In this document: positions 1 to 11,140 of the stretch, piece by piece | How positions within the stretch are numbered: the stretch's first letter is position 1 | How the letters are laid out: every line of letters starts with the position of its first letter | DNA from: a virus | Lineage: Monodnaviria; Loebvirae; Hofneiviricota; Faserviricetes; Tubulavirales | Length of the DNA stretch: 11,140 nucleotides | Direction: 5' to 3' (one strand) | IMG/VR virus record: IMGVR_UViG_2667527953_000001 | Program-made: the position numbers and the translations under genes | The notes under the pieces: model-generated | Database searches by the model: none | The model's input: the letters and a program-made list of their open reading frames with translations, nothing else | Told to the model about the DNA's origin: nothing

Positions 1-102
1 AAACAAAACGTTACGGCCACACGGAAGAGGAAGCACGATTTAAAAAATAGCTAAAGGAATGTAGAGTCCCGACAGGATTAACAACATCAGCTCAGAAAAA
101 CC

Positions 103-243
103 ATGCACGACATGATTCTGGATTTACTAATGAAATACCTGATTGCCGGTAGTCTGTTCGGCATGTTTTTGTTCAGCGTCATAACAATAGTGTTGCCAAT
201 CGTCCTGAGGGCACACAATAAAATCAACAGAAGCAACGACTGA
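103..243 (+). CDS. Small hydrophobic membrane protein (46 aa), diverged paralog of the 8919..9074 product
   Basis: ATG at 103, TGA at 241-243; not in ORF track (too short). Translation MHDMILDLLMKYLIAGSLFGMFLFSVITIVLPIVLRAHNKINRSND has one predicted TM segment. Aligns with the 8919..9074 protein (shared ILDLL.K...GS..GM..FS.IT.VLP.V...HNK) although the DNA has diverged, which argues for selection on the protein. No clear Shine-Dalgarno. Confidence 0.4.
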   Translation: MHDMILDLLMKYLIAGSLFGMFLFSVITIVLPIVLRAHNKINRSND

Positions 244-252
244 ATGCACAAC

Positions 253-280
253 AGTGCGCACAATGGCGTTATGTATAAAA
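253..280 (+). promoter_or_regulatory. dif-like Xer recombination site (arm A of composite attP)
   Basis: AGTGCGCACAA-TGGCG-TTATGTATAAA resembles E. coli dif GGTGCGCATAA-TGTATA-TTATGTTAAAT (XerC arm, central region, XerD arm). Identity with copy 2 starts abruptly at 251. Confidence 0.55.
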
Positions 281-317
281 AGGCCGCTGCGGTGGAAAGT
301 ATCGCAGCGGCCTTTTC
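277..317. terminator. Bidirectional rho-independent terminator hairpin inside attP
   Basis: AAAAA-GGCCGCTGCG-(11 nt loop)-CGCAGCGGCC-TTTT: 10-bp GC-rich stem (282-291 / 303-312) flanked by an A-run and a T-run; lies between convergent pIV (minus) and the small ORF (plus). Confidence 0.7.
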
Positions 318-318
318 A

Positions 319-348
319 ACATAACGCATGTCACATTATGCGCACTGA
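319..348 (-). promoter_or_regulatory. Inverted dif-like site (arm B of composite attP)
   Basis: Minus strand reads AGTGCGCATAA-TGTGACA-TGCGTTATGT. The XerC-like arm (336-346) is complementary to 253-263 with one mismatch, and 319-326 is complementary to 267-274, so the single strand can fold into a forked hairpin. Confidence 0.5.
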
Positions 349-396
349 CGTTGTGGTAGGTAAACTGAGATGCCGCGTCCTGATAATCCCGGTCGG

Positions 397-992
<596 letters not shown>

Positions 993-999
993 GTTATAC

Positions 1000-2440
<1,441 letters not shown>

Positions 2441-2456
2441 CGGAGTGTCCTCTGTC

Positions 2457-3671
<1,215 letters not shown>

Positions 3672-3684
3672 TTACCCCGCAAAA

Positions 3685-4044
3685 TTACTTGCCAACATTA
3701 AGCCCATTTGATTTAAATAAATCATAAACCAATCGATACACTCTATCCTTATAAAGATATATGTATGAAATAAATTGAACATGGAGGATGATATTAAAGC
3801 AGTACTGAATATTTAAAGGCAGGTAACTGAATGCAACTACAATAACATCGAGTTTATTAACATCGGAGATTTGACGAATAATAAAATTGACGGCAGATAC
3901 AAGAGCATAATATGAAGTGTAGCAAAGACCAAGATAAGAAAGGAGCTTAGCCCATGCAACAGCTTTATCACCGATAACTCCTGCAATGAAACGTAGTGAT
4001 TTTAAAACAACATCAACAAAAAAAGCACCTAAAATGGCCCACAT
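3685..4044 (-). CDS. Minor coat protein pVI-like (119 aa, hydrophobic)
   Basis: Sits between pIII and pI as in Ff; ATG at 4044 overlaps the pIII TGA (TGATG), suggesting translational coupling; hydrophobic with several predicted TM segments; size close to Ff pVI (112 aa). Confidence 0.6.
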   Translation of the reverse strand: MWAILGAFFVDVVLKSLRFIAGVIGDKAVAWAKLLSYLGLCYTSYYALVSAVNFIIRQISDVNKLDVIVVAFSYLPLNIQYCFNIILHVQFISYIYLYKDRVYRLVYDLFKSNGLNVGK

Positions 4045-5408
4045 CAGAGTTTTACCTCACGTTCAAATAATGTACGGCGAGAAATAACAAAAACGCGTAA
4101 CATGGTTATCATATAAATAGCATATTCAAGAACAGAACGAACATAATCGTCATAAGCTTTTGCAAAATGGCTTGTATCAATCTTGAAATTAATAGCGCCA
4201 ATCAACGGAAGATCAAAGCTAAATTGTAAAATAAAAGGAAGAGCAGTTCCATTATTTGTATTTACCAGTTTGTCAATATTAACTGTAAGCCAATTGTTAT
4301 TATCATGACTCTCACTTCCCTGTCCTGGCAAGTAATGCGAAAGCTCCCCTAAAGGGAAATCCCCATCAGGCAAAGAAGAAGCTATATTCTGACTAATATC
4401 TTTAATACCATTGTCCAGTGAATTTAATGCATTATTCATATCAGCCTGAGAAACAGAAAAAGCATTATTTAAATCATTCACTGACACCCATATTGTTTTT
4501 AACCAGCCCAAAATACCATCAAGCCAGCCATTGTCATCGCCGGATGAGCCACCGGATCCTGAACCTGAACTACCGCTACCGGATGAACCGCCGGAGCCCG
4601 AGCCGGAGCCACCGCTACCGGATGAACCACCGGAGCCAGAACCTGAACCACCACTGCCGGATGAGCCGCCGGAACCCGAGCCGGAGCCACCGCTACCGGA
4701 TGAACCACCGGAGCCAGAACCTGAACCACCACCGGAACTGCCGCCGCCTGGGTTACCACCACCGGAACTGCCACCACCTGAGCTACCGCCATCCTCCTTA
4801 CCATCGGAGAATGCAGGATCTACAGCAACTGGTTTCCAGTCGGCAGTACAAACTGTATCATCATCGGGATTACAAATAAGAGGATTACCGGTTGCCTCAT
4901 AAATACACCCCTGCACATTAACATAACGGGTCCCGTCATCACCTTTATAAACATCAGAAAAAGTCATACCATCAAGAACCGGACGAGAAAGACAAATCTC
5001 GTCAGTTGGCGGCTTATTATATTCAGGTGTCAAATCCCCCTCACCACCCTGAAAAGCAAGGGTGCAGGCTGTCCACTTTTGCTTGTCTGAATCCCAGACT
5101 TTATATGCTGACCACCGGGCACGGACAAAAGACCCGACAGTCGAAGGTGCATTAACAGGCGTTGAAAGTGGCACACCACAATAATGAATTATTCCGGAAC
5201 ATGCGTCATAACTGCCCGAACCACAGAAAAGATGACCGGCCGCCCTGGCTAATTTAATCGACGTCCCCGCGTCCGAATAATCTGTCCTGCAGGATGAATG
5301 GCCTGCACACTGAACAAGTGCATCCGGATTTTCTTTCTCTTCAGCGAAAGAAAACGAGGAAAAGAACAAAAACAGAAGCGGAATAATAAAGTGAATCAAA
5401 CAAAACAC
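4044..5408 (-). CDS. Minor coat / adsorption protein pIII-like (454 aa)
   Basis: N-terminal signal-like hydrophobic segment, Cys-rich N-terminal domain, about 100-aa Gly/Ser linker (GGSGSGSGGSSGSGG units) and a C-terminal domain with a hydrophobic anchor, immediately after pVIII. The 5408 start is GTG with the AGGA directly adjacent; TTG three codons downstream has better spacing, so the exact start is uncertain. Confidence 0.7.
   Translation of the reverse strand: MFCLIHFIIPLLFLFFSSFSFAEEKENPDALVQCAGHSSCRTDYSDAGTSIKLARAAGHLFCGSGSYDACSGIIHYCGVPLSTPVNAPSTVGSFVRARWSAYKVWDSDKQKWTACTLAFQGGEGDLTPEYNKPPTDEICLSRPVLDGMTFSDVYKGDDGTRYVNVQGCIYEATGNPLICNPDDDTVCTADWKPVAVDPAFSDGKEDGGSSGGGSSGGGNPGGGSSGGGSGSGSGGSSGSGGSGSGSGGSSGSGGSGSGSGGSSGSGGSGSGSGGSSGSGSSGSGSGGSSGDDNGWLDGILGWLKTIWVSVNDLNNAFSVSQADMNNALNSLDNGIKDISQNIASSLPDGDFPLGELSHYLPGQGSESHDNNNWLTVNIDKLVNTNNGTALPFILQFSFDLPLIGAINFKIDTSHFAKAYDDYVRSVLEYAIYMITMLRVFVISRRTLFEREVKL
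4496..4800 (-). repeat. Internal direct repeats encoding the Gly/Ser-rich linker of pIII
   Basis: About 78-bp repeating units (for example ccgctaccggatgaaccaccggagccagaacctgaacc at 4613 and 4691); this explains the spurious Pro/Glu-rich antisense ORFs at 4418..4902. Confidence 0.8.
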
Positions 5409-6490: not shown

Positions 6491-8638
<2,148 letters not shown>

Positions 8639-8827: not shown

Positions 8828-8918
8828 TAATCACAAAACGATTTGGCGATTGCTAGAAGAGCAAAAAGTACCACCCGTGGTACAAAAGTGCAGTATTACA
8901 TGATTGCTAAAAAGCAAT

Positions 8919-9074
8919 ATGCAGACAACCAGTGACTTAATTCTTGACCTGCTGATAAAGCATTTTGTTGTTGGCAGCATCACAGGCATGACAATATTCA
9001 GCCTGATAACGCTTGTCCTACCGTTGGTGATGACCATACACAACAAACTAAGTAAGGACACTGAAATCCTTTAA
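8919..9074 (+). CDS. Small hydrophobic membrane protein (51 aa) between regulator and attP
   Basis: ATG 8919 to TAA 9072-9074, not in ORF track. MQTTSDLILDLLIKHFVVGSITGMTIFSLITLVLPLVMTIHNKLSKDTEIL has one TM segment; paralog of the 103..243 product. Confidence 0.5.
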   Translation: MQTTSDLILDLLIKHFVVGSITGMTIFSLITLVLPLVMTIHNKLSKDTEIL

Positions 9075-9079
9075 GGTTC

Positions 9080-9107
9080 AGTGCGCACAATGACGTTATG
9101 TATAAAA
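9080..9107 (+). promoter_or_regulatory. dif-like site (arm A of attP, copy 2)
   Basis: AGTGCGCACAA-TGACG-TTATGTATAAA; same as 253..280 apart from one central-region difference (TGACG versus TGGCG). Confidence 0.55.
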
Positions 9108-9144
9108 AGGCCGCTGCGGTGGAGAGTATCGCAGCGGCCTTTTC
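9104..9144. terminator. Bidirectional terminator hairpin inside attP (copy 2)
   Basis: Same hairpin as 277..317 (one loop SNP, GGAGAG versus GGAAAG). Confidence 0.7.
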
Positions 9145-9145
9145 A

Positions 9146-9175
9146 ACATAACGCGTGTCACATTATGCGCACTGA
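9146..9175 (-). promoter_or_regulatory. Inverted dif-like site (arm B of attP, copy 2)
   Basis: Counterpart of 319..348 with one SNP (ACGCGTG versus ACGCATG). Confidence 0.5.
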
Positions 9176-9226
9176 CGTTGTGGTAGGTAAACTGAGATGC
9201 CGCGTCCTGATAATCCCGGTCGGCAC

Positions 9227-11140
<1,914 letters not shown>

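Follow-up and report, generated by a model that had tools for sequence, protein, structure and literature searches.

The window analysed here, a stretch of 11,140 bp, is the complete contig CDQU01001424.1 of the draft assembly GCA_000936775.1. Because a composite site at positions 253-346 is repeated 8,827 bp further on, at 9080-9173, we interpret the window as a tandem prophage array. The units and genes of the array are as follows:

1..335, minus strand: start of unit X, a different variant, with the centre and hairpin of the putative attP and a diverged small membrane ORF
103-243, plus strand: small hydrophobic ORF of unit X, 46 aa
336..9162, minus strand: unit Y, a prophage with Rep, pIII, Zot/pI, 339-bp repeats and an internally deleted secretin gene
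3668-2457, minus strand: Zot/pI of unit Y
5408-4044, minus strand: pIII-like coat protein (Phage_Coat_A) of unit Y
8590-6491, minus strand: Rep of unit Y (GPA/RstA-type, ~670-700 aa)
8904-9074: small hydrophobic ORF of unit Y, 56 aa
9080..9173, minus strand: second copy of the composite site (putative attP), where units Z and Y join, with the crossover at 9162/9163
9163..11140, minus strand: end of unit Z, with an intact secretin gene (10435-9227) and 339-bp repeats

Unit X is identical to the left end of the prophage L006 at 345 of 346 bases and only ~65% identical to the corresponding stretch of unit Y, the small hydrophobic ORF included (1-335 versus 8830-9162). Scans of the unit's ORFs against Pfam and PHROG returned Rep, coat, Zot and secretin only; no integrase was found among them. 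The best matches of the Rep protein were to fs2, VFJ and RstA of CTXphi, at ~30-31% identity. Searches of a phage collection gave no near or distant DNA match to the window or to the composite site, so the phage is not a deposited genome, and the literature yielded nothing specific to this phage of E. coli/ETEC. As far as these searches show, the element has not been described. Its backbone (window positions 1-4000) is matched in ~300 of 5,426 complete E. coli genomes, some of these matches perhaps being to the plasmid-like repeats, and 925 E. coli genomes carry the composite site.

The secretin gene of unit Y lacks ~900 bp of its middle (536-977 compared with 9363-10268), and the gap is occupied by three 145-bp repeats that are 99% identical. 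Unit Y probably lacks a working secretin and would depend on neighbouring units. An independent assembly (L012) has the same secretin junction in unit Y and three fewer 339-bp repeats; repeat copy numbers in the window are possibly unreliable or assembly-dependent, as it is a draft contig. The 339-bp tandem repeats lie between the Zot and secretin genes (1031-2443, 4.2 copies; 10474-11140, 2.0 copies) and are 96-100% identical. Each contains a 61-nt segment that is 100% identical to a non-coding part of a 2.7-kb E. albertii plasmid and is also found in hundreds of small, mostly mobilizable plasmids. The segment is presumably ~78% similar to a stretch of pBR322/pUC adjoining the ColE1 origin, where a PriA primosome assembly site lies. 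The segment could be a complementary-strand origin of the phage. Considered as a structured single-strand initiation site, it folds no better than shuffled sequences, so this role is only a lead.

Two further sets of repeats were seen in unit Y. Direct repeats of the form GTGCAATTGTGCA(A/C)A..TGCAA at 8517-8590, in the interval separating the Rep gene from a divergent 62-aa gene (phrog_2503), look like an operator or origin iterons. The pIII-like gene has internal 39/78-nt tandem repeats at 4540-4791, which presumably encode a Gly/Ser-rich linker, as expected from the pIII of Ff phages.

Anatomy of the composite site

The 94-base segment at 253-346 holds two inverted XerC/XerD dif-like sites that lie close together (253-279 on the plus strand and 314-346 on the minus strand) and flank a GC-rich hairpin:

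253..263, plus strand: XerC-like arm of site 1, AGTGCGCACAA
264..268, plus strand: centre of site 1, 5 nt, TGGCG (TGACG in the second copy), fully paired in the fold
269..279, plus strand: XerD-like arm of site 1, TTATGTATAAA, fold partner of 314-324
278..316: inner GC-rich hairpin, arms 278-291 and 303-316, with an 11-nt loop and flanking A and T runs
314..324, minus strand: XerD-like arm of site 2, TTATGTTGAAA, 9/11 match to the dif arm TTATGTTAAAT
325..335, minus strand: centre of site 2, 11 nt, TGTGACATGCG, with an initial TG(T) as in the dif centres TGTATA and TGCATA
336..346, minus strand: XerC-like arm of site 2, AGTGCGCATAA, 10/11 match to the dif arm GGTGCGCATAA

The matches of site 2 are to the dif of a prophage-free E. 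coli genome (L002), the host site being the comparison that a first-pass annotation of this DNA had pointed to. This empty dif reads GGTGCGCATAA TGTATA TTATGTTAAAT; its centre has 6 nt, compared with 11 in site 2 and 5 in site 1. The phage centre, which begins TGTGAC, matches TGTATA over 3 nt and TGCATA over 2 nt. In CTX-type integration, a match to the host dif centre in the bases beside the XerC cut is what stabilises the swap of strands (PMC3089051). The E. coli dif is itself polymorphic, both in the first base of the XerC arm (GGTGCGCATAA or AGTGCGCATAA; L001 17785-17806, L002 389-410) and in the centre (TGTATA or TGCATA).

The window has four occurrences of the XerC-arm motif GTGCGCAYAA, two per copy of the composite site, where 0.12 are expected. 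The two copies are identical from 252 to 535 and from 9079 to 9362 except at 266, 297 and 328, and the second copy (9080-9173) is identical to the site of a single-copy prophage, L001. A search of Rfam returned nothing at the gathering threshold.

Folding and covariation of the two sites

The first-pass annotation had described the segment as two inverted sites able to fold into a forked hairpin, and all of the pairings it proposed are present. Positions 253-263 (AGTGCGCACAA) pair with 336-346 (TTATGCGCACT) with one mismatch, read as T.G (a wobble) on the minus strand and as A.C on the plus strand; the complement of 253-263 forms the bottom strand of the folded XerC site. The pairing of 267-274 with 319-326 was likewise recovered and is widened in the minimum-energy fold to 266-274 with 319-327, while the inner hairpin of 278-291 with 303-316 is perfect, with 14 nt that are 100% complementary. 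The annotation had also left the two centres unpaired. This holds only for a 6-nt bulge (328-333) on the long-centre side, as TG at 264-265 pairs with CA at 334-335 and GCG at 266-268 pairs with CGC at 325-327. The strand therefore folds, in silico, into one dif-like duplex with a partly unpaired centre. Characterised Xer sites have centres of 6-8 bp, and the bottom-strand spacer of the fold has 5 nt; falling below this range, the spacer counts against the model of a folded site.

When 240-360 was folded as single-stranded DNA, the energy was -42.7 kcal/mol for the plus strand (z -9.6) and -43.5 for the minus strand (z -10.6), and none of 200 shuffles folded as well. In a 100-nt segment slid along the contig, the composite site gave the strongest fold of all (-40.9 compared with a mean of -11.3, sd 4.8). 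The second strongest hairpin of the packaged strand is GC-rich and lies at 6521-6620, where the 3' end of the Rep gene is (minus strand -31 kcal/mol, plus strand -24.6; z -3.1). We considered it as an alternative packaging signal and rejected it, as it is just moderately unusual and within the Rep gene.

A structural pattern search for the two-site arrangement, using a pattern that fixed much of the arms, found the same arrangement in 9 species-representative genomes and 32 viral contigs, together yielding 32 distinct sequences. The genomes include Yersinia pestis, Y. rohdei, Enterobacter, Kluyvera, Lelliottia, Phytobacter, Erwinia and Rosenbergiella. All 32 distinct homologues have the same fold, site 1 keeps its inverted register in each of them across many genera, and the centre of site 2 is 10-11 bp throughout. 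Fold energy was set aside as independent evidence for the strand in use. The minus strand folds better almost wholly because its XerC arm has the T.G wobble, at a position constrained by the search pattern, so the preference of the whole site for this strand in 31 of the 32 homologues is partly built into the pattern; the unconstrained inner part has no strand preference, the top strand folding better in 17 of the 32.

Pairing was kept in 99.6% of cells among 21 distinct homologous sites. Compensatory changes, with both sides altered, were found at 12 of 35 pairs, compared with 3.2 +/- 1.3 in shuffles (0 of 500 reached 12) and with 1-2 compensatory pairs when the partners were slid. Eight pairs with compensatory changes are in the inner hairpin. 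Outside the constraint of the pattern lie a covarying arm pair, 7-89 (C-G to T-A), and the centre pairs 12-84 and 13-83 (TG/CA to GA/TC), which are the first two bases of the centre. The independent covariation events are few, since the double changes cluster in about three lineages.

One contig with the arrangement, metagenome-assembled and binned as Candidatus Nanosynbacter (L018, 5728-5819), has a site identical to that of Y. pestis and Phytobacter. It is most likely an enterobacterial prophage contig that was mis-binned.

Lysogen junctions and the crossover point

Related prophages in complete E. coli genomes are located exactly at dif, between a yneL-like pseudogene and hipA, and the prophage locus of L001 corresponds to the position of the empty dif in L002. 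At the left end of L006, the chromosome runs into GGTGCGCATAA, followed directly by TGTGACATGCG and TTATGTTGAAAAGG, that is, the host arm, then the phage centre and the whole double site. Its right end runs from the secretin gene into AGTGCGCATAA, followed by TGCATA, TTATGTTAAAT and the chromosome, that is, the phage arm, then the host centre and XerD arm. The right ends of L007-L011 are the same. L001 has AGTGCGCATAA followed by TGTATA TTATGTTAAAT at its secretin end and the full double site at its other end, and in the array of L005 the outermost arm has the host-type G and the internal arms the phage-type A. These junctions, set against the empty dif of L002, place the crossover on the XerC side of dif, and the junction in the window agrees.

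Read from 346 to 1, the window is the same as the left end of L006 except at base 346, which is A in the window and the host-type G in L006. The difference arises because the arm was supplied in the window by the neighbouring prophage and in L006 by the host dif; in this array the XerC arm of site 2 (336-346) thus comes from the preceding prophage, unit Y. The differences between the two copies of the composite site (266, 297 and 328) all lie between the XerC arms, on the incoming-phage side of 335/336, and 336-535 is identical to 9163-9362. Together, the lysogen junctions, base 346 and the positions of the copy differences put the point of exchange at 335/336 and, in the second copy, at 9162/9163. 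Several independent lysogens have their crossovers exactly where the arm of site 2 meets its centre, and we conclude that the arms are the recombination site.

On this point our result departs from the first-pass annotation, which had the identity between the copies begin at 251 and 9078 and took this start for the junction. Identity in fact begins at 252 and 9079, and the L006 ends and the comparison with the window put the crossover at the XerC arm of the other site. Two different phages share a conserved attP module, whose edge is the break at 252.

The A-type arm on the chromosome side of L001 was considered as an exception and dismissed. The same A-type dif is found empty in 358 complete E. 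coli genomes, ATCC 8739 and E. coli C included, so the arm of L001 is the host's own allele. The L006 prophage has an HTH_3 regulator module, yet its Zot protein is identical to that of the window. Together with the match of unit X to the left end of L006, this suggests that modules are swapped at attP.

The contig is a draft assembly and repeat-rich, and the 284 bp of duplicated identity and the array itself might be put down to an assembly artefact or to ordinary homologous duplication with no site-specific event. The composite site is also found at unit junctions in the complete genomes L003 and L005 and at the prophage ends in L001 and L006, and the same junction recurs in the independent assembly L012; on this evidence we regard either explanation as scarcely credible.

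The lysogen junctions alone fit single-strand and double-strand exchange at site 2 alike. If integration were of the VGJphi type, the duplex of site 2 (314-346) alone would recombine with dif, XerC acting first, and site 1 and the hairpin would be bystanders, serving for example as a terminator; the junctions would be expected to look the same, as they involve the XerC arm of site 2 only. The VGJphi type is an established class, and IMEX of the VGJphi and TLCphi types use XerCD at dif with no integrase (PMC4246890). Such elements have one double-stranded dif-like site, with a centre of 6-8 bp in the VGJphi type, and integrate reversibly, whereas the window has two inverted, covarying sites with non-canonical centres of 11 and 5 bp. 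The 10-11 bp of the site 2 centre in all homologues contrast with the known 6-8 bp (6 in dif; PMC3089051). Site 1 is kept inverted in all 32 distinct sites, and its covariation with site 2, centre bases included, would not be expected of a bystander. Given the centre lengths, which are not those of dif, the conserved two-site arrangement and the covariation, we favour the folded strand over the duplex and consider integration of the VGJphi type unlikely.

A further reading takes the structure to be mainly a terminator, packaging signal or complementary-strand origin, with dif-like arms that have no role in integration. The site lies directly after the secretin gene, between convergent genes, it is the strongest hairpin of the packaged strand, and its inner stem of 14-17 bp leads into TTTTT (minus strand) or TTTTC (plus strand). 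In Ff phages, a packaging hairpin that is also a terminator is found at the equivalent place after the gene. The crossovers at the arm/centre boundary of site 2 refute this as the sole role, and such roles can coexist with an attP but not stand in for one; we hold the reading to be very improbable. The inner hairpin was also not flagged in a terminator and promoter scan, which gave one promoter-like match, no more than expected by chance. The scan missed the hairpin because its 11-nt loop exceeds the loop limit of 8 and the plus-strand tail has only 4 T. In addition to serving an attP, the inner hairpin is plausibly a terminator between the convergent secretin gene and small ORF, especially for the main operon, and the bidirectional action that the first-pass annotation proposed for it is likewise plausible; it is possibly a packaging signal as well.

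We also noted related sites on other replicons. L005 (8640-23140; E. coli cM8a) has at least four tandem 3.66-kb satellite-like units at dif, each with a II/X Rep, an SSB, two unknown genes and no structural genes. Each unit has two different composite sites ~90 nt apart, and the terminal hybrid site reads AGTGCGTATAA GATATA TTATGTTAAAT. As the first two bases of this hybrid centre depart from those of the dif centre TGTATA, exchange at the B-type site of L005 may not be on the XerC side. Fragments of the composite site were found at 487 plasmid places, on large plasmids of E. coli (e.g. NZ_CP078136.1 89757-91141). On the ColV plasmid L004 (80-107, 3000-3069), a half site of YpfPhi type adjoins an ISNCY transposase and is ~2.9 kb from a dif-like plasmid site that contains TGTGCGCACAA TCTATC TTATGTTAAAT. 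These plasmid part-sites may be remnants of Xer-dependent elements in plasmid dimer-resolution sites.

Proposed integration route and comparison with known systems

We conclude that 253-346 is very probably the attP of a filamentous E. coli phage that has no integrase and relies, in the manner of CTXphi, on XerCD, the system by which the host resolves chromosome dimers. The first-pass proposal of a composite attP for XerC/XerD resembling attP(+) of CTXphi is thereby upheld by CTX-type junctions at dif, compensatory changes in the stems and homology to the attP of YpfPhi/CUS-1. Anatomy, fold, location at dif, crossover point, the gene content with no integrase found, mixed tandem arrays and covariation are evident from the sequences. 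From the anatomy and from precedent, we infer use of the single strand, catalysis by XerC, resolution by replication and irreversibility. The tandem arrays of the window, L003 and L005 agree with these last three properties, and so do the non-canonical lengths of the duplex centres (11 and 5 bp).

Inoviruses package the strand that has the sense of the main operon. The XerC-to-XerD direction of the crossover site is that of the coding strand and, combined with this packaging rule, it would make the minus strand of the window, the phage coding strand, the relevant one. In phage contigs, too, the strand with the long centre is the main coding strand (e.g. 1749 versus 112 aa in L036, 1610 versus 0 in L048 and 1694 versus 101 in L053).

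The packaged (+) strand would then be the coding strand, the minus strand of the window, on which the inverted sites would pair into a duplex resembling dif, whose XerC arm would have 11 bp, whose short centre would carry a 6-nt bulge and whose XerD arm would be imperfect. The fold would be nucleated, and its two halves held together, by the inner GC hairpin. XerC and XerD would bind the folded stem, and XerC would cut the phage strand after AGTGCGCATAA (336/335) and exchange it with the top strand of the host dif, the TG(T) common to the phage and host centres stabilising the strand swap. Replication would convert the one-strand junction into an integrated prophage. The host arm and the entire double site would end up at the regulator end of the prophage, and a new working dif, made of the phage arm, the host centre and the host XerD arm, would form at the secretin end. 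Later phages could insert at this new dif and build up tandem arrays, and progeny would be made through rolling-circle replication over neighbouring copies. With centres of 11 and 5 bp, the duplex sites should be inactive, and therefore the prophage should be unable to excise.

A broader reading, which we offer tentatively and with some doubt, is that the ~92-nt attP is a portable cassette of at least three otherwise unrelated Enterobacterales replicons, swapped by rolling-circle replication across mixed arrays, with the same hairpin perhaps acting as the operon terminator and possibly as a packaging signal. The three replicons may be an inovirus with an RstA/GPA-type Rep (the window), the YpfPhi/CUS-1 lineage with its II/X Rep, and a 3.7-kb satellite-like element. 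If this reading were true, the window, in which Z, Y and X stand side by side and one of them has lost most of its secretin gene, would be an exchange caught under way, and one structure would do three jobs, as attP, terminator and packaging signal. Mixed arrays that place a secretin-defective phage beside a complete one are useful for considering hybrid-phage formation and helper dependence.

Among the closest known sites are those of YpfPhi and CUS-1Phi, which are related members of the CTXphi integration type (PMC4246890) and whose CTX-type assignment is already in the literature (PMC4246890, PMC3089051, PMC4266046). YpfPhi has an inverted pair of XerC/XerD sites and is present as 2-4 tandem copies at dif, and CUS-1 is ~99% identical to it over 7.1 kb (PMC4266046). 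The attP of YpfPhi (Yersinia pestis) and CUS-1Phi (E. coli O18:K1:H7) is 81-86% identical to the window site over ~92 nt and has the same architecture, with the inner hairpin GGCCGCTGCG and centres of 5 nt (bottom) and 10-11 nt (top). The arms differ, being AGTGCGCATAA and AGTGCGCACAA in the window and GGTGCGCATAA and GGTTCGCACAA in YpfPhi/CUS-1. Beyond the attP, the phages differ as well: the YpfPhi-like prophage L003 has a Rep of the II/X family and different structural genes, whereas the window phage has a Rep of GPA/RstA type. L003, from E. coli, is 99% identical to the prophage locus L017 of Y. pestis, and the window shares with both only the ~92-nt attP, without the genome-wide similarity of the YpfPhi/CUS-1Phi lineage. 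The window site is thus homologous to a CTX-like attP already known, but the phage backbone that carries it is another one; it belongs to this kind of attachment site and lies outside the YpfPhi/CUS-1 phage lineage.

In CTXphi itself, attP1 and attP2 form the forked hairpin of attP(+) (Val et al. 2005, as summarised in PMC3089051 and PMC4246890). Their centres have 12 and 7 nt, the long one starts with TGTG, and integration follows a single-strand mechanism that uses XerC only (PMC3089051). The window differs from CTXphi in several respects. The spacer between the sites is ~90 bp in CTXphi and a single clean terminator-like hairpin of ~34 nt here, and the bottom spacer has 7 nt in CTXphi and 5 here. 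The host of the window phage is E. coli, and the phage, known here from sequence alone, has its own secretin and no toxin genes. The likenesses extend to most of the arrangement. In both phages, the inverted sites lie between the last gene of the main operon and a divergent regulatory region, and both have unequal centres (12/7 nt in CTXphi, 11/5 in the window) of which the long one starts with TGTG. Both show a crossover on the XerC side with a new functional dif at one end, tandem arrays and no integrase, and the Rep of the window phage is distantly related to RstA (~31% identity). The mechanism is not new, being known from CTXphi and proposed for YpfPhi/CUS-1. Few elements are thought to integrate through XerCD as folded single strands, and with the window they gain a second inovirus backbone from E. 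coli, unrelated to the first; its base-precise junctions, together with natural covariation, back the folded-site model outside Vibrio.
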